Below, in pieces: positions 1-58,366 of a stretch of 58,414 nt of DNA (position 1 is the first letter of the stretch; each line of letters opens with the position of its first letter). Under the pieces are notes generated by a model that was given only the letters and a program-made list of their open reading frames with translations, was not told the DNA's origin and did not search any database. The translations under genes were made by a program, and so were the position numbers. The DNA is from an uncultured Methanosarcinales archaeon. GTDB taxonomy: Archaea > Nanobdellota > Nanobdellia > Woesearchaeales > UBA583. The DNA is taken from contig CAZLRR010000002.1 of assembly GCA_964562045.1 (NCBI GenBank), positions 1 to 58,414 on the forward strand. The letters are read 5' to 3'.

Positions 1-245
1 TTGGTGCCAAGAATCTCTGATTTTTGAGCACAAATCCCAGTCCTGACGTTTATTTTAAATATATTCTATAACTAAGGATTTGAACTTTAGTTCCTTTGGT
101 GCCAAGAATCTCTGATTTTTGAGCACAAATCCCAGTCCTGACGTTTATTTTAAATATATTCTATAACTAAGGATTTGAACTTTAGTTCCTTTGGTGCCAA
201 GAATCTCTGATTTTTGAGCACAAATCCCAGTCCTGACGTTTATTT
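1..245. repeat. Tandem direct repeat with a 95-bp unit: two full copies (1-95, 96-190) and a 55-bp partial copy (191-245). It may continue upstream of the window.
   Basis: The copies are base-for-base identical on inspection (the unit begins ttggtgccaagaatctctga). Identity ends at 246. Confidence 0.95.
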
Positions 246-373
246 AAGGTGTTTTTTGTACTTCCAAAAAAATTGCTTTGATTTTTGGTTATGTTTTTTA
301 TATGTAATTTTTTAATATTTACTTCTATATTATAATTATAAATATTTAATAAGGCAAGATTTGAATTTATTTT

Positions 374-9056: not shown

Positions 9057-9354
9057 CCTTTATATTTTTTGGTTTTGAGCTTTATATATTTTTGGTAGAG
9101 GTGAGATTATTTTTTTTATTTTTAAATTTGACAAATAGTTTTATAAATTCTAAACACCTCATATTTCTTATGGAGAAGAAAAACTTAGTAAAAACTAGTG
9201 ATTGTCGGCCTAGACAATAGTTTATACTATAAAATTTCTTCAATAAAGGGACTTCCCGTATAATTCTAAATTAAAACAAAGACAACAAAGACTAGTATTT
9301 ACTAGAAACAAATTATTATTCGTATTTGAAATCACTTCAATTTAAAAGAAATAA

Positions 9355-9440
9355 AACCTCCCTCCTCCTCCTAAAAGTTCAAGTAAACTTAAACTTTTAG
9401 CCACACACCGAGGGTTCTTTGATTAAATGAAGAGATTTCC
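9355..9440 (+). repeat. R1 repeat family, short fragment: pyrimidine box, short hairpin, and a CCACACACCGAGG tail
   Basis: The tail ccgagggttctttgattaaatgaagagatttc is nearly identical to 51999-52029. The box cctccctcctcc matches the R1 inter-module linker. Confidence 0.7.
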
Positions 9441-9698
9441 AATCTTTAAGACAAATGACACAAACAAACTATCGGCCTTGAAAGCCAATTAAGACAAGCT
9501 TTAGAAGATATAAAAGAAGAAAAAGGACTTGATTACAAACATAGAATTCAAGACATTCTATCAGTAGAATCGAGATTTTCAAAAGTGTTTTATAACTTAT
9601 TTGGACATTATTTTATATGTTATCAAGAGTTAGATGAACACTTTTTGGAGAAACAAAAGACTTATTAAATAAGATTAAAATATAATAACTAAGAACAA

Positions 9699-15530: not shown

Positions 15531-18500
15531 ATGGAGAGTTTTCCAATCATTGAGACCAGAAAAATTGAGGATTATGGTGATGATTCCAGTGTAGATTTGG
15601 CAGTGGAGACTATGAAGCAAGGAAAACAAGTTTTGATTTTTAATAATTCTAAGAGAAGTAGCGAGGCAACAGCAGATAAAGTTGCAAAGAAATATGTTGA
15701 AAGAGCAAATAATGAAGAACTTGAGAAGCTTTCTGAACAGATTTTGAAAGTATTACCAACTCCAACAACCCAGTGTAAAAGGTTAGCAAATGCGGTAAAA
15801 AAAGGTGTAGCATTTCATCATAGCGGTTTAGTAGGAAAACAAAGATCTTTAATCGAAAATGCATTCAAGCAAGGAATTTTGAAGGCGATTTCGAGCACCC
15901 CAACACTATGTTTGGCAAAAGGAACTAAGGTTTGGTCAAATAATAAAAAAATTTCTATAGAAAAATTAAAAACAAATCAGGTTTTCGCATTAAAAGATTC
16001 AAGTTTGAATTTAATCAAACCAGAAAAAGTTGAAAATAATGGGTATAGTGATGAATTAATTGAGATTGAAAGTGTTTCGAGTCATAAAATTAAAGCAACA
16101 AAGAACCACAAATTTCTGATTAGAAGGAAAGGGAAGAAATTAATTTTGCAAGCAAACGAAATTAAGAAAACTGATTTGATTGCAACAGTAGGAAAAATTG
16201 AGATTAAAGAAAAAAATTTGATGTTTTCACAGTTTATTTTGGACAATTCTTTTCCTCTTGAAGATAAAGAAATTCCTGCAGAAATATTTTATTTAATTGG
16301 TGCAATGTTGGGTGATGGTTATTCTGGGGCTGAGAAGAAAGGCAACAAAATAAAATATAAGGGAAGTCCTTCGATTGTTGGAGTTGATAATGAAACTTTT
16401 GACAGGGTTCGGTTTTCGTGCAAACTTTTAAGAATTTCTTATAGGAAAACAAAAAATATCTATGGGACTCCCCAGCTAGTATTGGGAAAAAATAATTGGT
16501 TTAGGGAATTTTTAGTTAGGTGTGGTGTTGATGTTAGTGTTAATAAAAACATTTCAGAAGAGTTGAAGTTGGCAAGTAAAGAGAAAATTTCTAACTTATT
16601 AAAAGGGCTTTTTGACACGGATGGTTATGCAGAAAAAAGAGGACAACTCGGATATTCTAGCATTTCTTTAGATTTAATTAAAGATGTTCAAGAACTGTTA
16701 TACAGGTTTGGTATTACATCTAGAATTAGAAAAAGAAAGAAGAAATCAATTAGAATTTCAAATAAAGAATATGATTGTAAAGATTCTTATGAATTAATAA
16801 TTGCTGAAAACAATTCTATGTTAAGCTTTTTTAATAATGTTGGTTTTAATATCAATAGGAAAAAAGAAGTTTTAGATGAAATAATTCATAAAATTCAACA
16901 AAATATTTTGTATAAAGAATGTAATTTTTGTAATTATAAGTTATATTCTGATTTGTTTGGGGGAAGAACAAAAAGTCAAAAAGATTGGGGAAATGCAAAA
17001 CTCTTAATAATAAAAAATTTAGAAAAGTTTGGTCCTTTAACTTCAAAAGATTTAACTAATAAAGTTGGGTTTGAAATTAGAAAGAATAGTTCTAGATTAA
17101 ATCATCACTACGAATTAATTGGAAAAACAAAATTTAGCAAATATGATTGGACTTGGAATTTAAATTCTATTGGGAAAACAATTTCTAAGGAATTAAAAAA
17201 TTCGTCTTATGAAGAAATTTTTGAGAGAACAAATTGTTTAGTTTGTGGAAACAAATTAAACGAAAACATAAGGAATAATTGGAAAAATTCAAATAAGGAT
17301 GGAGATATTTTTTGGGATCAAATTAAATCAATTAAGAAAATTAAAGAAGAAGTTGAAGTTTTTGATGTTGTTTTACCCTCAGATGATTCAAATGATCATT
17401 TGTTTGTTGCAGAAGGATTTATAACGCATAATTCTGCGGGGCTCAACCTTCCAGCATATAAAGTTATTATTCGAGATTATAAAAGGTATTCAAGATTTGG
17501 TTTTGCAGATATTCCCGTCTTGGAGTTTCATCAGATGGCTGGGCGTGCAGGAAGGCCAGGTTTAGAATTTGTTGGGAAAGCTGTTGTTTGCGTAAAAACT
17601 GAAGATGAACTTGCAAGAGTTACGAAAAAATATGTTTTCGGACAGGCCGAAGAAGTTATTTCAAAACTTGCTGTTGAGCCAACTTTGAAAATGTACATGC
17701 TCTCTCTTATTGCAATGGACATAATCAATACAAAACAGGAAATTAAAGACTTTTTCAAAAATACTTTATATGCTCATCAGTACCAAGATCATGAAGCTTT
17801 TAATTTTAATTTATTTAGGATTTTGAACATTTTAAAAGATTATAGATTTATTTCTCAAGAAGACGATTATTTTATGGCAACACCAATTGGAAAGAAAGTC
17901 TCAGAGCTTTATTTAAATCCAGATACGGCAAATTATTTTTATTCTAATCTTGACAAATTTATTAAAAAATTTTCAAATAGTAAAATTGGTAAAAATGACA
18001 TATATTCACTTCTTTATTTTGTTTCAGACACTTTGGAAATGAAACCTTTATTTAGCATTAGGAAAAATGATGAAGAAAGGTTACAGCTAAGGGCAGAAGA
18101 AGTGGCAGATGGTTTGATAGTTGGATTTGATCCTTATGAGATGGATTATAAGCAGTTTTTATCTCTTTTAAAGGTGAGTGATTTGTTTTTGGATTGGATT
18201 AGTGAAAAAAGTGAGGATTATTTGTGTGATTTATATGGCGTAACTCCAGGAGAAATGCAGTTTAAATTTGAAATTGTTGATTGGCTACTTTATGCTCTGG
18301 AGGAAATGGCTTTGATGAAAAAGAGTATTTTTGTTAAGAATTATTTGACGAAATTACGTCAGAGATTCAAATTTGGAGTAAAGGAAGAACTTTTGATGCT
18401 AATTAAATTAAAGGGGGTTGGAAGAGTTAGGGCTAGAAAGCTATATAACGCAGGATTTAAGACTTTAAATGATATCAGGAAGGCAAGTTCAGATGATTTA

Positions 18501-18698
18501 GTTAAAGTTATTTCGTCTGGTCTTGCTTTAAGTTTGAAAAAACAAATTGAAGGGAGTGAGATTGGAGAAAACAAACTTGCTTTGCCAAGAGAACTTCGTG
18601 CAAAAGAAGTAAGCGATGAGGAGATTGAAGTTTTGCTAAATAACGAGAAAGAATTCGAGAAACAAAAGAAAGGTGGAGGATTATTAGATTATTTCTAG
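15531..18698 (+). CDS. Hel308/Ski2-type DNA helicase, C-terminal part only (RecA2, WH, ratchet and HhH domains), interrupted by an intein
   Basis: Motif IV region QVLIFNNSKRS is present. GVAFHHSGL and STPTL|intein|SAGLNLPA represent motif V. Motif VI is QMAGRAGRPG. The C-terminal HhH is LIKLKGVGRVRARKLYNAGF. There is no Walker A or DExH domain. Confidence 0.85.
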   Translation: MESFPIIETRKIEDYGDDSSVDLAVETMKQGKQVLIFNNSKRSSEATADKVAKKYVERANNEELEKLSEQILKVLPTPTTQCKRLANAVKKGVAFHHSGLVGKQRSLIENAFKQGILKAISSTPTLCLAKGTKVWSNNKKISIEKLKTNQVFALKDSSLNLIKPEKVENNGYSDELIEIESVSSHKIKATKNHKFLIRRKGKKLILQANEIKKTDLIATVGKIEIKEKNLMFSQFILDNSFPLEDKEIPAEIFYLIGAMLGDGYSGAEKKGNKIKYKGSPSIVGVDNETFDRVRFSCKLLRISYRKTKNIYGTPQLVLGKNNWFREFLVRCGVDVSVNKNISEELKLASKEKISNLLKGLFDTDGYAEKRGQLGYSSISLDLIKDVQELLYRFGITSRIRKRKKKSIRISNKEYDCKDSYELIIAENNSMLSFFNNVGFNINRKKEVLDEIIHKIQQNILYKECNFCNYKLYSDLFGGRTKSQKDWGNAKLLIIKNLEKFGPLTSKDLTNKVGFEIRKNSSRLNHHYELIGKTKFSKYDWTWNLNSIGKTISKELKNSSYEEIFERTNCLVCGNKLNENIRNNWKNSNKDGDIFWDQIKSIKKIKEEVEVFDVVLPSDDSNDHLFVAEGFITHNSAGLNLPAYKVIIRDYKRYSRFGFADIPVLEFHQMAGRAGRPGLEFVGKAVVCVKTEDELARVTKKYVFGQAEEVISKLAVEPTLKMYMLSLIAMDIINTKQEIKDFFKNTLYAHQYQDHEAFNFNLFRILNILKDYRFISQEDDYFMATPIGKKVSELYLNPDTANYFYSNLDKFIKKFSNSKIGKNDIYSLLYFVSDTLEMKPLFSIRKNDEERLQLRAEEVADGLIVGFDPYEMDYKQFLSLLKVSDLFLDWISEKSEDYLCDLYGVTPGEMQFKFEIVDWLLYALEEMALMKKSIFVKNYLTKLRQRFKFGVKEELLMLIKLKGVGRVRARKLYNAGFKTLNDIRKASSDDLVKVISSGLALSLKKQIEGSEIGENKLALPRELRAKEVSDEEIEVLLNNEKEFEKQKKGGGLLDYF
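15909..17432 (+). mobile_element. Intein (508 aa) with a LAGLIDADG homing-endonuclease domain, inserted in helicase motif V
   Basis: The N-terminus is Cys (CLAKGTKV) and block B is TKNH. The two dodecapeptide motifs are LIGAMLGDGY and LLKGLFDTDGYA. It ends in the C-terminal HN followed by Ser+1. Confidence 0.9.
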
Positions 18699-28084: not shown

Positions 28085-28148
28085 TTCTACTCAGTTCAGC
28101 ATTTCACAATAAAAATTCTACTCACTTCATTCGTTACATTTATAAATG
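28085..28148 (+). promoter_or_regulatory. radA upstream region: two direct 14-mers (ttctactcagttca, ttctactcacttca) followed by the TATA box tttataaat
   Basis: The 38-nt block 28111-28148 is shared (31 of 38 identical, same length) with 47493-47530 upstream of the DinD-like gene. Confidence 0.55.
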
Positions 28149-28264
28149 ACTTTTTTTTAAATTAATTATCTAAGATTTGGGTAGCCATTCTTAGAAGGTT
28201 TTTTTAGTTTTGATCCGAAAGGGCCTTGACAAAGTCATGCCGAAAAACTGAGCGAAAATGAAAA

Positions 28265-40129: not shown

Positions 40130-40366
40130 ATATTTTAATTAAAACAGCTTTGATCGTATTATGTTATTTCAAGAAATCCTCGATTTCTAAGCCTTGATGT
40201 GATTTTCACATAAAGTTTTAAAAAATTGATTTTTCCCAAACCCCAAAATTTTCAACTTTCAATTTAAAATTTTCGTCCGAATTTAGACTAAGAAATAAAT
40301 TTCATAAGTTTCCAAACAAAGCCTTTAAAACGCAATGTTTATAAATTTTATAATTCTGTTATAATT

Positions 40367-47466: not shown

Positions 47467-47492
47467 AATTAGTAGAAAAATCTCTTTTTTCT

Positions 47493-47530
47493 AAAAATTC
47501 TACTGACTTCATCACTCAGTTTTATAAATG
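47493..47530 (+). promoter_or_regulatory. Promoter block of the DinD-like gene, shared with radA
   Basis: aaaaattctactgacttcatcactcagttttataaatg matches 28111-28148 at 31 of 38 positions. The TATA ends 21 nt before the ATG at 47551. An inverted agtagaa lies at about 47471-47478. Confidence 0.55.
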
Positions 47531-47550
47531 TAATATTTCTAATTTAAGTT

Positions 47551-48496
47551 ATGGAAGACAAATTAATAATTTTTGAGGACAAAAAGATTAGGAGAATTTG
47601 GTTTAATGAAGAATGGTATTATTCTGTTGTTGATATTATTGAAGTATTAGTTGAAGCAAGTATTCCTAGGAGATATTGGTCTGATTTGAAGGCTAAAATG
47701 CAAAAAGATGAAGGTTTTGAGTTGTACGATTTTATCGTACAACTGAAATTAGAGGCTTCTGACGGGAAGAAATATGTAACTGATTGTGCTAATACAAAAT
47801 CTATATTTCGTATAATTCAGTCAATCCCATCAAAAAGAGTTGAACCTTTCAAACAATGGTTTGCTCAATTAGGAGAAGAAAGACTTGATGAAATTCAAAA
47901 TCCTTCATTAGCAGTTGAAAGATCTAGAGAATATTATAGAACAAAGGGCTATCCAAAAGCATGGATTGATAAAGAAAAAATCGCTGACTCACTCTATCTC
48001 CACCTAAAGGATGGAGTATTACGAGCGAGTCTTATTCGCGATTTTTAGTCATTCCTTAGAATATACATTTCATCCCCAACTTAAAAGTTGGGGTATTCCA
48101 AGGAATAAAAGATTAGAATCAACTCAAATAAGACAAGATTTGACTGACGAATGGAACGAAAGAGGAATAAAAGAGAGAAAAGATTATGCTATTTTAACTA
48201 ATGAAATTCATAAGGCTACTTTTGATAAGAACATTAAAGAACATAAAGAATTCAAAGATTTATCTAAGAGAAATAACTTAAGAGATAATATGACAACTTT
48301 AGAATTGATTTTTTCAATGCTAGGAGAACATGCAACTAAGGAAATAACTAAATCTAAAGATTCAACTGGCTTTGGCGAATGTTTTGATAGTGCTCAAACG
48401 GGCGGAAAAATTGCAGGAAATGCAAGAAAAGAACTTGAAAAACAAACAAAGCAAAAAGTAATTTCTAAGGGTGGCGAGGTAAAGAGGTTGGAGTAA
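47551..48496 (+). pseudogene. Bro-N / DinD-like (DNA-damage-inducible protein D family) gene, split into two ORFs by a 131-bp insertion
   Basis: The N-terminal part is IRRIWFNEEWYYSVVDIIEVL...SIPSKRVEPFKQWFAQLGEERL. The C-terminal part is RLESTQIRQDLTDEWNERG...NLRDNMT. Deleting 47974-48109 (136 nt) restores one 269-aa frame. Confidence 0.75.
47974..48104 (+). mobile_element. R3 small insertion element (131 bp) flanked by a 5-bp direct repeat (ataaa)
   Basis: The direct repeats are at 47969-47973 and 48105-48109. There is an internal near-perfect 20-nt palindrome ccccaacttaaaagttgggg nested inside attccttagaata/tattccaaggaat. A second copy lies at 11159-11264. Confidence 0.7.
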
Positions 48497-48512: not shown

Positions 48513-48793
48513 ATTTGAAATAATCTCAAATTATAAGAAAAAAAAGTTGGCATTTTTGTTATATGGGTTATTGAAGATTAAAATTTTAATAGATTTAATT
48601 CCCCAAACCTCCCCAAAAACTTCGTTTTTGCTAGCCAATTTTAGAATTAAAATCCTAATCTTTGAGATGTTATACAATACATTCTTGCCAACTTTTAAGA
48701 TGCCTTCAGCCTCCCCCTAAAAAATCCAATTTGTTTGTTTTTTAGTATGGATTTTTCAGCCACACCGAGGTCTTTAAATTAAGAGATTCAATC
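48513..48793 (+). repeat. R1 nested-hairpin repeat, copy a (module 1 complete, module 2 reduced to a short hairpin)
   Basis: Positions 48601-48699 are essentially identical to 58032-58130. The basal stem is aaaagttggca/tgccaactttt, the second hairpin is aaaaatcca/tggattttt, and the tail is cagccacaccgagg. Confidence 0.85.
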
Positions 48794-48969
48794 AAATTAT
48801 TTGAAAATAGATTATTTTGGAGATTATTATTGAATAATTCTTCCCAAATCCTAAAAACACACAAAGTTTTCCCAAATCTGATAAAAAATCAAAAAGTTTA
48901 TAAATAAAAATTTCTTAATAGTTTTATCAAAAACGTAAAATTATAATGAAATTGCGTAAAACATAAAAA

Positions 48970-51801: not shown

Positions 51802-51879
51802 ATTAGTATTTAGAACGTTCAACTTAAAAAGGTTTGTTTTTTAGGGCTCTGTCCGGAATATAAAACAAACCTATTTTTA

Positions 51880-52030
51880 GAAAATTGATTTCCCCAAACC
51901 TCTCCAAAAACTTTGTTTTTGCAGCCAATGTTACATTTAAAAACCTAAATTTCTTATTGTTAAAATAATTAATTCTGTCAAAACTTTCATCCACGCGCCG
52001 AGGTTTCTTTGATTAAATGAAGAAATTTCT
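51880..52030 (+). repeat. R1 repeat, single-module fragment (apical region, right arm and tail)
   Basis: tccccaaacctctccaaaaactttgtttttgcagccaatgttacat plus the right arm and tail match module 2 of the copies at 56100-56230 and 58200-58320. The tail variant is shared with 9404-9440. Confidence 0.75.
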
Positions 52031-52051
52031 ATTTATGAAACTAACTTTTTT

Positions 52052-55850: not shown

Positions 55851-56256
55851 GAATTTGAAAACATATCAATTTATAAGAAATAAAAATTTGGCATTTTTGT
55901 TATCTGAGTTTTTAAAAGATTAAGATTTTAATAGATTTTTGTCCCCAAACCTCCTCAAAAATTTCATTTTTGCTAGCCAAGAATAGAATTAAACTCCTAA
56001 TCTTTGAGAGGTTATAAAAGAAATTCTTGCCAACTTTTAAGTTTCCTTTCACCTCTCCCTAAAGTTTTGATATTTTTGTTATATTATATAGTAAAAATTT
56101 GGGTTTAATTGACTTTCCCCAAGCCTCCCTCTCGCTTTGCTAGGCAGCCAATGTTACATCTAAAAACCCAAATTTCTTATTGTTAAAAAGTTAATTCTGT
56201 CAAAACTTTCAGCTCACGCACTCAAGGTCTTAAATCTAAGAGATAAATTCAAATTC
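55851..56256 (+). repeat. R1 nested-hairpin repeat, copy b (two complete modules)
   Basis: It is collinear with 57942-58345. The short termini gaatttgaa / ttcaaattc are inverted. Confidence 0.85.
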
Positions 56257-56553: not shown

Positions 56554-57693
56554 TTAACTAAAAAAACCTTTAATTCTTGAAAAGAAATTTTTATCTTTCA
56601 AAGTTTTAGCATAATCTCCTAAAATTTTCTTTTGTTCTTTTGTAATTTTTGTTGGAATTTCAACATTAACTTTAACATACAAATCTCCATAGCTATTATA
56701 GTTTAAGTATGGCATTCCTTTATTTTTCAAACGTAGAACTGTTCCGGGCTGAGTTCCTGCAGGAATTTTCAAGAGCAAATCTTTTTCAAAATGTTCAATT
56801 TCTACTTCATCTCCAACAATTGCTTGGATAAAATTAACATCTAAAGTCATATACAAATCTTCTCCTTCAACATTGAAAATTTTATTTTCATTAACGAAGA
56901 TTTTCACATATAAATCTCCGTAAGTTTCGCTTTGTGGGTCATAACTTCCTTTGCCCTGAATTCTGAGCATTGTTCCTGAAGAGACACCTTTTGGAATTTT
57001 TATAGTTACTTTTTCTTTCTTTTTTATTGTCCCGCTTCCATTACATTTTTCACAGGGATTTTTAATAGTTGAACCTTCTCCATGACATTTTGGACAAACT
57101 TTTTGGGTTCTCATCATACCAAGAATAGTTCTTTGAGTCTGGACTACAAATCCTTGCCCGCCACATTCATCACATGTTTGAACATCTTTTTTATTTTTTG
57201 TTCCAAGGCTGCGACATTCATCACATATGTCGTCTCTGGAAATTGAGATTTCTTTTTCAGTTCCGAAATATACTTCTTTTAAATCAATTTCTGTTTCTGC
57301 ATAAACTCTGGTGTCAGCTCTTCTTTGAGTTCTGGAATGACCTCTTCCGCCTCCTCCAAAGCCACTAAAACCTCCAAAACCGAACTGTTCAAATATGTCG
57401 TCAATATTAATTCCGAAATCTTCTGGGTTGAATCCTCCTCCCCCGAATCCTCCAAATCCTTGAGGTCCATCTGCTGTTCCGTATGTGTCATATTGTTGTC
57501 GTTTTTGGTCGTCGAGTAAAACTCCTGCAGCTTCATTTATTTCTTTAAATTTTATCTCGGCGTCTGTTTCTTGTGAGATGTCAGGATGATATTTTTTTGC
57601 GAGTTTTTTATATGCTTTTTTAATATCTTCTTTCGAAGAATCTTTACTTACTTCTAATATTTTGTAATAATCTTTGCTTGCCATTTTTAACAT
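56554..57693 (-). CDS. dnaJ: Molecular chaperone DnaJ (type I Hsp40)
   Basis: It has a J domain with HPD, a G/F-rich linker, and four CxxCxGxG repeats (CDECRSLG, CDECGGQG, CPKCHGEG, CEKCNGSG). An alternative start is at 57684 (MASKDYY). Confidence 0.95.
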   Translation of the reverse strand: MLKMASKDYYKILEVSKDSSKEDIKKAYKKLAKKYHPDISQETDAEIKFKEINEAAGVLLDDQKRQQYDTYGTADGPQGFGGFGGGGFNPEDFGINIDDIFEQFGFGGFSGFGGGGRGHSRTQRRADTRVYAETEIDLKEVYFGTEKEISISRDDICDECRSLGTKNKKDVQTCDECGGQGFVVQTQRTILGMMRTQKVCPKCHGEGSTIKNPCEKCNGSGTIKKKEKVTIKIPKGVSSGTMLRIQGKGSYDPQSETYGDLYVKIFVNENKIFNVEGEDLYMTLDVNFIQAIVGDEVEIEHFEKDLLLKIPAGTQPGTVLRLKNKGMPYLNYNSYGDLYVKVNVEIPTKITKEQKKILGDYAKTLKDKNFFSRIKGFFS

Positions 57694-57807
57694 TTAATAT
57701 TTATTCTTTGAAATAAGACCACAGAAAAAATAGATTTTTTTTCTTCTGTCTTCTTTAGAAGCGCCTTTTTCAACTCCTAGAATTTCATAATAATCTTTTT
57801 TTGCCAT
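57694..57807 (-). pseudogene. Duplicated dnaJ 5' fragment: a 37-codon ORF encoding the first 20 aa of a J domain followed by unrelated sequence
   Basis: It translates to MAKKDYYEILGVEKGASKED-RRKKIYFFCGLISKNKY. Its TAA stop abuts the dnaJ ATG at 57691-57693. A TATA-like tttataaat lies about 40 nt upstream. Confidence 0.6.
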
Positions 57808-57912
57808 TTTTTAGGTTTAATCTATAAATGGTTAAGTATATTTTATTTATAAAGTTTTTCTCAAAAGAGGATTTTTGATTTATTTTTTAGGTTTTGTTAT
57901 ATTTTTTTAAGG

Positions 57913-58366
57913 CTGAAGTTATGCGTTTTTTATCTTAGGTGTTTGAAATAATTTCTAATTATAAGAAATAAAAAAGTTGGCATTTTTGTTATATGAGTTC
58001 TTAAAAGATTAAGATTTTAATAGATTTTTGTCCCCAAACCTCCCCAAAAACTTCGTTTTTGCTAGCCAATTTTAGAATTAAAATCCTAATCTTTGAGATG
58101 TTATACAATACATTCTTGCCAACTTTTAAGTTTCCTCCCTCCTCCATAAAGTTTTGACATTTTTGTTATATTAGATAGTATAAATTTGGGTTTAATTGAG
58201 TTTTCCCCAAGCCTCCCCCTCGCTTTGCTCGGCAGCCAATGTTACATCTAAAAACCCAAATTTCTTGTTGTTAAAATAGTTAATTCTGTCAAAACTTTCA
58301 GCTCACGCGCTCGAGGCCTTAAAAGTAAGAGATAAATTCAAATTCCTAAAAAACGCATAACTTCAG
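57913..58366. repeat. Perfect 19-bp inverted repeat (57913-57931 ctgaagttatgcgtttttt; 58348-58366 aaaaaacgcataacttcag) that brackets R1 copy c
   Basis: I checked the exact reverse complementarity by hand. Confidence 0.9.
57942..58345 (+). repeat. R1 nested-hairpin repeat, copy c (two complete modules)
   Basis: Module 1 stems are aaaagttggca/tgccaactttt and aaagattaagatttt/aaaatcctaatcttt. Module 2 stems are aaagttttgaca/tgtcaaaacttt and aaatttgggttt/aaacccaaattt. Confidence 0.9.

Follow-up and report, generated by a model that had tools for sequence, protein, structure and literature searches.

In classical MITEs, the termini are the best conserved part of the element. ERIC/IRU and Correia elements, which occur in Enterobacteria and Neisseria, are imperfect palindromes of about 100–150 bp that exist in size variants created by insertions at fixed internal sites and are co-transcribed with flanking genes as hairpin RNA. 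Correia elements are further characterised by a TA target duplication and defined 26-bp inverted repeats. In archaea, a Woesearchaeal genome with 105 MITEs per Mb has one of the highest densities (PMC11602168). The BOX elements of Streptococcus pneumoniae are composed of boxA, boxB repeated n times and boxC, and have been judged parasitic, yet they are transcribed and able to affect neighbouring genes; their mobilising enzyme is unknown (PMC3049150). The REPIN/RAYT system is based on REP doublets that form hairpins (bioRxiv 10.1101/2021.07.10.451892).

The repeats described here, R1, are carried by a 58,414-nt stretch of DNA (the window) and are best read as palindromic interspersed repeats of a family not described before, with a modular, MITE/BOX-like organisation. 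We consider it rather probable that they are lineage-restricted, non-coding and non-autonomous interspersed repeats in which palindromic units of two kinds are nested and which behave as selfish mobile DNA. As its gene content shows, the window represents ordinary chromosomal DNA from a DPANN archaeon of Woesearchaeota/Nanoarchaeota type. The best relatives of its DnaJ carry Woesearchaeota or Nanoarchaeota labels, and its gene products include an intein-containing archaeal Hel308-like helicase, an archaeal-type ProRS, RadA, S6e, TFS and Nre, as well as DUF835, GyrB, DnaK and DnaJ. The genes are leaderless, with TTTATAAA found ~30 nt ahead of the ATG, and a Shine-Dalgarno-like motif is present in only three of 48.

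Five R1 copies are found in the window, all on the + strand, in agreement with the number and approximate positions given in an initial annotation of this DNA. They are 118–404 nt long, AT-rich and without exception intergenic, and their shared blocks correspond to repeat families D1, D3–D5, D7, D12 and D13 in a repeat search of the window. With copy c as the query, nhmmer returns c itself (E = 1.4e-123), b (4e-84), a (2.8e-40) and d (5.5e-12); no further match rises above noise. Copy e was recovered via repeat families D4 and D12 and by aligning it end-to-end with the scaffolds. The copies and associated features are as follows.

9325..9442, + strand: copy e, an intact scaffold without a module, with a leader/tail inverted repeat of 29 nt and a fold z of -5.2; its parts are the leader TTTGAAATCACTTCAATTTAAAAGAAATAAAA, a CCTCCCTCCTCCTCC box, a small hairpin AAAAGTT..AACTTTT, AGCCACACACCGAGGG and a tail that pairs with the leader

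40209..40276, + strand: a possible degenerate remnant, consisting of AAAGTT, a short apex-like TTTTTCCCAAACCCCAAAA and then AACTTTCA

48514..48796, + strand: copy a, a scaffold with module 1 (48542-48696), in which a small hairpin replaces module 2

51871..52031, + strand: copy d, a 5'-truncated mosaic (repeat families D3 and D12)

55851..56256, + strand: copy b, a scaffold with module 1 (55883-56038) and module 2 (56061-56209)

57942..58345, + strand: copy c, a scaffold with module 1 (57972-58127) and module 2 (58148-58298)

58134-58145, + strand: the pyrimidine box CCTCCCTCCTCC of copy c, between modules 1 and 2

57913..57931, + strand: left arm, CTGAAGTTATGCGTTTTTT, of a perfect 19-nt outer inverted repeat that is paired in the MFE structure

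58348..58366, + strand: right arm, AAAAAACGCATAACTTCAG, the partner of 57913..57931, with which it encloses copy c

As a sixth copy, the segment at 40209..40276 is not significant (nhmmer E = 0.059, CM E = 0.45, local alignment within or near the shuffle range). A Logan contig of 1810 nt (L025, from SRR11308339), whose DnaJ is 100% identical to that of the window, ends inside copies b and c. Such ends are the usual effect of repeats in a de Bruijn assembly, and as the contig comes from a separate data set, the copies are true repeats and not an artefact of this assembly.

R1 is built from a scaffold and a module. The scaffold (~120 nt) consists of a leader (TTTGAAAT..TC.A.TT(A/T)TAAGAAATAAAA), a CCTCC-rich box, a small hairpin (AAAGTT..AACTTT), the sequence CAGCCAC(N)C(N)CGAGG and a tail (..AAGAGAT..TTCAAA). 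In copies a, b and e, the leader is an imperfect inverted repeat of the tail over roughly 30 nt, interrupted by scattered mismatches and short gaps; in copy c, the alignment of the terminal inverted repeats reaches ~50 nt when the outer 19-nt repeat is counted. The number of modules per scaffold is zero in e, one in a, and two in b and c. Copies a, b and c minus their modules align end-to-end with copy e, which makes e the intact basic unit and not a fragment. The division into three full copies and two fragments made in the initial annotation must therefore be revised: copy a has module 1 only, and e is a module-free scaffold with both of its ends. Likewise, the two homologous modules ascribed there to each full copy exist in b and c, but not in a, where module 1 is accompanied by the small hairpin. 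The motifs on which that annotation was based are all present, i.e. the basal stems, TTTTTGTTATAT, the distal stems, TCCCCAARCCTC, the mini-hairpin, AGCCAAT, the pyrimidine box, CAGCCAC..CGAGG and the AAGAGAT tail.

The module is a hairpin of 150–175 nt with short inverted ends (TTGRCA..TGYCAA), an internal loop, a stem of 12–15 bp and an apex of ~55 nt, which is conserved and non-palindromic. Alignment shows modules 1 and 2 to be homologous to each other. Module 2 is located exactly within the AAAGTT/AACTTT stem of the scaffold hairpin, and module 1 is located within a second copy of this stem (AAAAGTT-GGCA...TGCC-AACTTTT). Both arms of every module carry TGTTATA-type motifs, which are in direct and not inverted orientation. 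Overall, the palindromes are layered, onion-like, around the non-palindromic apex. The series of zero, one and two modules, together with a stand-alone module in another lineage (see below), indicates that there are two units, one nested in the other. The apex and the surrounding inner stem form an apex unit, of which the window contains the following examples.

58007..58096, + strand: the apex unit of module 1 of copy c, the best conserved segment of R1 (covariance-model matches of 63–108 bits), composed of the inner stem GATTTTAAT/ATTAAAATC, TCCCCAAACCTCCCC, the mini-hairpin CAAAAAC-TTC-GTTTTTG and GCTAGCCAA

48576-48665, 55918-56007, 56095-56178, 58182-58266 and 51867-51955, + strand: equivalent apex units, found as covariance-model matches

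In all 199 kb of sequence examined, the covariance model of the apex unit finds nine units only. Copies a and c share an identical tract of 100 nt (48600-48699 and 58031-58130), close to the ~97 nt estimated earlier. Copy d combines an apex of the module 1 type with a 3' arm of the module 2 type and a tail like that of e. This mosaic and the a/c tract show that the copies exchange sequence, by gene conversion or mosaicism.

The closest relative compared is GCA_050292425.1, in which a locus (L026) encoding a DnaJ 68% identical to that of the window retains the gene order of window positions 45–58 kb (DnaJ, small ORF, DUF835 ... HIT, TFIIS ... Hsp70, Bro-N, beta-propeller). This syntenic locus contains none of the four local copies, in a comparison that is between distant relatives (DnaJ 68% identical) and not between strains. 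Its intergenic gaps are 0–150 nt long. The genes that flank copy b in the window overlap there by 4 nt and have no spacer, and the HIT–TFS gap is 136 nt. The gap upstream of dnaK (147 nt) aligns with the window only from ~48835 on, i.e. beyond copy a; the dnaK promoter is conserved just past this copy, and the segment that contains the copy is missing from the orthologous region. Given how compact the corresponding junctions are in L026, the R1 copies are lineage-specific insertions. Four further DnaJ relatives also have no copy (the loci of all five relatives amount to ~80 kb of non-redundant sequence).

The distribution of R1 outside the window is patchy. A scan of GTDB species representatives with the apical motif gave six matches, all in unrelated bacteria and about as many as expected by chance, and a scan of JGI metagenomes in which the loop and apex motifs were required together gave none. 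A second scan of JGI metagenomes returned 15 matches, two of which are real (L033 and L035) and belong to the same sample, Ga0102943. The L033 copy adjoins an rve-family IS with its own 25-bp inverted repeats, which has inserted into the copy. This IS was considered as a parent element and rejected: its inverted repeats are unrelated to R1 and it has no homologue in the window. The L035 copy lies upstream of genes for ferredoxin and ackA, and the contig ends in the copy. In a Nanoarchaeota MAG (GCA_048615555.1, AckA 94% identical), a copy (L052) is found between an ATPase gene and POR, and the AckA relatives L053–L056 have no copy. The neighbours of R1 in this second lineage are ferredoxin/ackA, POR and a RhuM-like gene. 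Here, the module occurs alone, without the scaffold. Its outer stem (GTAATTGATTAGGTT/AACCTAATCAATTAC) and internal loops differ from those of the window, and its apex is the same, with a stretch of 58 nt identical between L033 and copy c. Across organisms, the apex is the best conserved part of R1, and the stems differ yet remain complementary.

This type of conservation is also what would be expected if R1, or its hairpin module, were a family of structured ncRNA genes with a functional apex (UCCCCAAACCUCCCC on the + strand or GGGGAGGUUUGGGGA on the - strand) presented by the stems. We regard this explanation as unlikely, even though several observations speak for it. The folds are strong: extended copy c has a folding energy of -118.7 kcal/mol compared to -72.7 +/- 5.2 kcal/mol for dinucleotide shuffles (z = -8.9), and the + strand z-scores of a and b are -2.1 and -2.7, next to the -5.2 of e. 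Both strands fold about equally well, and this includes the reverse strand of copy c. In an alignment of nine related apex units fitted to the model, 80.7% of the cells are paired and 6 of 22 pairs have changed on both sides. The covariation score of these nine model-fitted units from 2–3 organisms is 0.179 versus 0.086 for shuffles (0 of 500 reach it) and is above that of all slid registers too, but the control is known to be inflated by the relatedness of the units and by the fitting of the alignment to the model. Between modules 1 and 2, there are about four compensatory differences in the distal stem and one, from G-C to A-T, in the basal stem. The C-G to T-A change in the mini-hairpin, pointed out in the initial annotation, is confirmed; L052 has the same change and L035 a C.A intermediate.

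The question of strand bears on the same explanation. Read from the - strand, a conserved A.C mismatch of the inner stem would become G.U, which favours an RNA made from that strand. Other stem mismatches, however, are G.T and would be G.U on the + strand, so that the strand signal is inconsistent and no bias is left. The single compensatory change in the mini-hairpin is weak evidence for RNA. Neither the mismatches nor the fold energies can be used to choose a strand, as mismatches of both kinds occur and the energies are similar on both strands. Furthermore, the segments that flank the C-rich apex motif are found in all four allele combinations, which indicates that they do not pair and suggests that they have been recombined.

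Transcription of such an RNA would start from the TATA-like sequence in the leader (+ strand) or in the tail (- strand), and both the leader and tail do hold boxes of the TTTATAAG/TTTAAAAG type that resemble the host's own promoters. A - strand transcript would be terminated by the T6 tract that follows module 1, with its start at the foot of hairpin 2. This foot is near 58298 in c, 56209 in b and ~9397 in e. The predicted + strand start, however, falls inside module 1 and would destroy its basal stem, and both strands are interrupted by T5 tracts, which are archaeal terminators. With Shine-Dalgarno sites in only three of 48 genes, the obvious target of CCUCC/GGAGG loops is gone as well; a role as an anti-Shine-Dalgarno mimic or ribosome sponge was rejected on the same grounds, 45 of 48 genes being leaderless and without such a site. 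Missing as it is from the closest syntenic relatives, R1 would also be unusual for a housekeeping RNA. The Rfam comparison proposed with the initial annotation gives 0 matches at the gathering threshold for the whole window, and E-value scans of all copies and of L033, L035 and L052 give only noise (best score 20.6 bits compared to a cut-off of 70). No tRNA or tmRNA was found by ARAGORN.

The - strand of module 1 can also be read as a small protein of 46–48 amino acids (..NLKVGKNVLYNISKIRILILKLASKNEVFGEVWGQKSIKILIF), an explanation to which we assign a next to negligible probability. Its frame is open in a, b and c and, in L033, through the apex. In sequence of 30% GC, any given frame has a ~2% chance of staying open over this length, and copies a, b and c are ~90% identical, so that their three open frames are not independent observations. 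Copies b and c differ by seven amino acids for ~12 nucleotide changes, a ratio that implies no purifying selection. The start codon varies (ATG, GTG, TTG), the most conserved stretch contains a 1-nt indel in d and L052, L035 has an in-frame stop and the frame is not kept in module 2. The substitution pattern, indel and stop codon led us to reject the protein, and no conserved coding frame of any other kind is found in the R1 copies. Pfam searches of 40 ORFs and NCBIfam searches of the unannotated ORFs reveal no transposase or recombinase in the window, and no RAYT/IS200-like (HUH/Y1) gene either. Taken together with the Rfam result, the frame check and domain searches bear out the earlier statement that R1 contains no ORF, has no transposase and belongs to no known RNA family. 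A blastn comparison with phage and plasmid DNA gave no meaningful match, and two motif scans of viral contigs gave only chance matches in coding regions.

The copies occupy intergenic settings of four kinds. Copy a is located upstream of the conserved dnaK promoter, copy b fills the entire gap between the convergent genes for DUF835 and a 95-aa protein, copy c is upstream of dnaJ on the opposite strand, copy d lies between two minus-strand genes, and copy e separates the divergent genes for IMPDH and ProRS. Four of the five copies are within 10 kb around dnaK and dnaJ, where they contribute roughly 1.3 kb of non-coding repeat, an amount that stands out because DPANN genomes are very small and compact. 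This clustering would be accounted for if R1 were a regulatory or architectural array at the DNA level, in which a DNA-binding protein, through repeated sites, organises the chaperone locus and other genes or co-regulates them. The candidates for such sites would be TGTTATA, which occurs twice per module and, on the two arms, in direct orientation, as well as TCCCCAAACC and the CCTCC/GGAGG polypyrimidine box; conservation of a non-palindromic apex is in line with such a role. Nevertheless, a binding array is very improbable. Copies b and d are upstream of no gene, b being placed between convergent genes, and the orthologous chaperone locus of the relatives works without the element. The copies of the other lineage adjoin unrelated genes (ferredoxin/ackA, POR, RhuM-like), and no candidate binding protein has been identified.

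Of the three options offered in the initial annotation (a MITE-like element, an ncRNA family or a protein-binding array), the first is the one that the evidence favours, because R1 is absent from a compact syntenic relative, patchy in distribution, mosaic and nested in structure, and bounded by terminal inverted repeats; the other two gain no positive support. R1 also behaves like a repeat in that contigs L025 and L035 break at copies and an IS has inserted into the L033 copy. Under the reading of R1 as nested mobile repeats, the units would spread by transposition or recombination catalysed in trans by a putative enzyme encoded elsewhere in the genome. They would land preferentially in AT-rich palindromes and in the centres of hairpins, giving rise to the onion-like layers, and composites such as b and c would then be copied whole. 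Landing in hairpin centres would place a conserved apex between variable complementary stems without any selection on RNA, and may thus explain a pattern that otherwise reads as RNA covariation. Pairing within the hairpins may be kept because the folded single strand is the substrate of mobilisation, or else by correction of one arm to the other. Effects on neighbouring genes, through transcript hairpins, oligo-T terminators or TATA-like sequences, would be by-products.

Several observations run counter to the mobile reading. The window contains no autonomous partner or transposase, no partner with matching ends was found, and the inverted repeats of the IS in L033 are unrelated. The part that is best conserved is the innermost, non-palindromic apex, as would be the case for a functional RNA or a protein-binding site, and the double-sided changes and above-shuffle covariation of the nine related units point in the same direction. 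In addition, all five or six copies have the same orientation, which random insertion of double-stranded DNA does not predict and a single-strand mechanism would. The flanks of the copies contain no consistent direct repeat that could be a target-site duplication, and those of copy c are inverted; a 12-nt direct repeat beside copy a (AATTATTTGAAA) overlaps the element's own conserved end. The sequence AAAGTT..AACTTT, considered as a favoured empty target, shows no enrichment in the window.

A further explanation combines mobility with function. The ~85-nt apex hairpin may itself be a functional, horizontally mobile Nanoarchaeota unit, which would be a structured RNA of a new class or else the folded single-strand recognition site of a novel DPANN recombinase that inserts the hairpin into palindrome centres. 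We consider this quite unlikely; the observations compatible with it are the 58-nt identity between organisms despite unrelated flanks, the single orientation and the compensatory pairing of the stems. We know of no REPIN-like system in archaea; if this explanation is true, a recombinase that recognises the apex would build nested hairpins, and R1 would be the first REPIN-like single-strand repeat system in this domain. Should the apex be a functional RNA, it would represent a new DPANN-specific RNA class.

Returning to nested mobile repeats as the preferred reading, cataloguing of R1 explains assembly breaks in DPANN MAGs and prevents mis-annotation of its copies as RNA genes or small ORFs. 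It also supplies a concrete, dissected example beside the statistical report of MITE-rich Woesearchaeal genomes. The combination of a conserved non-palindromic apex, nesting in hairpin centres and one orientation is a lead toward the enzyme that mobilises archaeal palindromic repeats.

Compared to other repeats, R1 shares most of its general properties with MITEs. It is small (120–440 nt), non-coding, AT-rich, intergenic and multi-copy, has imperfect terminal inverted repeats and a strong fold-back structure, is present or absent between related genomes and is confined to narrow lineages. Its density in the window (~86 copies per Mb) is similar to the 105 MITEs per Mb of the Woesearchaeal genome (PMC11602168). 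R1 was not filed simply as a MITE because no target-site duplication or cognate IS with the same ends was detected and because the inner apex, rather than the termini, is best conserved. Unlike MITEs, R1 is also modular, with nested units, and has a single orientation throughout. Similar to R1, REPINs are extragenic palindromic repeats of ~100 nt that form long hairpins and persist in a lineage, and they are mobilised as a single strand, a mechanism with which the uniform orientation of R1 would be compatible. In REPINs, however, it is the flanking REP palindromes that are conserved, around a variable central spacer, which is the opposite of what is found in R1 modules, and the R1 window has no RAYT/IS200-like gene. 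ERIC/IRU and Correia elements are, like R1, imperfect palindromes that come in size variants; their hosts and sequences are unrelated to those of R1. The internal modules of BOX elements are short (45 nt) tandem units and not large hairpins that bear an apex, and their host is bacterial. In other respects, BOX elements resemble R1 closely: both are interspersed and modular, their internal modules vary in number and their end modules pair to create extensive secondary structure, and BOX, too, is confined to one species group. By analogy alone, with no sequence relationship implied, BOX may be regarded as the nearest architectural analogue of R1.

The hairpin repeats themselves may attract mobile DNA. 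One copy of the module, the 150–175-nt hairpin unit of the repeat family, lies in locus L033 of the metagenome Ga0102943 beside the following element:

L033:90–1069, an insertion sequence (IS) of the rve (DDE) family, ~975 bp long and bounded by terminal inverted repeats of 25 bp (GTGTTGTCCTAAAATTATTTCCCAC).

Because this element occupies the place where the 5' arm of the module copy is expected, the arrangement suggests that the hairpin repeats serve as insertion targets for IS elements. The repeat copy upstream of dnaJ (copy c, window 57942–58345, plus strand) has a neighbor of another kind:

Window 57739–57826, a partial dnaJ duplicate just upstream of dnaJ, 73% identical to window 57616–57703.

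The duplicated part takes in ~22 codons from the start of dnaJ as well as the sequence upstream of them, and it yields a 37-aa ORF (MAKKDYYEILGVEKGASKED..), a truncated J-domain N-terminus located between dnaJ and the repeat copy. The same 37-aa gene is also called in an independent Logan contig (L025, SRR11308339).

The promoter region of the second chaperone gene, dnaK, shows conservation when the window is compared with the syntenic relative GCA_050292425.1 (L026):

Window 48890–48969 and L026:19715–19861, dnaK promoter region.

The conserved sequence reads TTTATAAATAA...CAAAAACGTAAAA, and the stretch of it that contains ACGTAA is a possible heat-shock operator. Nearly all genes throughout the window are leaderless, with a TTTATAAA box that starts ~30 nt ahead of the start codon, and a Shine–Dalgarno-like motif is found in only 3 of the 48 ORFs of the whole window.

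A repeat search and the gene content add two further features of the window:

Window 1–285, at its very beginning, a 95-nt unit in three tandem copies.
Window 15531–18698, a Hel308-type archaeal helicase gene with an intein that bears a LAGLIDADG homing-endonuclease domain.

Copies 1 and 2 of the tandem unit are identical, and copy 3 is 74% identical. On the minus strand the unit carries the tRNA T-arm-like sequence CTAAAGTTCAAATCCTTAG and ..GGCACCAA, although ARAGORN called no tRNA across the full 58 kb. The array could be a contig-end assembly artefact, an attachment site derived from a tRNA or what remains of a split tRNA.

The second lineage, in which the module stands alone, is represented by the Nanoarchaeota MAG GCA_048615555.1 (L052):

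L052:3165–4400, a pyruvate:ferredoxin oxidoreductase gene.

Its nearest relatives (~70% identity) are found only in bacteria, which suggests that the gene was acquired horizontally.

Finally, two genes of the window have a common upstream motif:

Window 28110–28165 and 47492–47547, a ~56-nt motif, TAAAAATTCTACTSACTTCAT...TTTATAAATG, 77% identical between the two sites.

The motif is located ahead of radA (28265) and of a Bro-N gene (47551–48048), and may serve both as the shared operator of a DNA-damage regulon. Taken together, the Bro-N gene and the ORF that overlaps its end (48011–48496) resemble the DNA-damage-inducible protein DinD, and they may represent a single dinD-like gene split by a frameshift.
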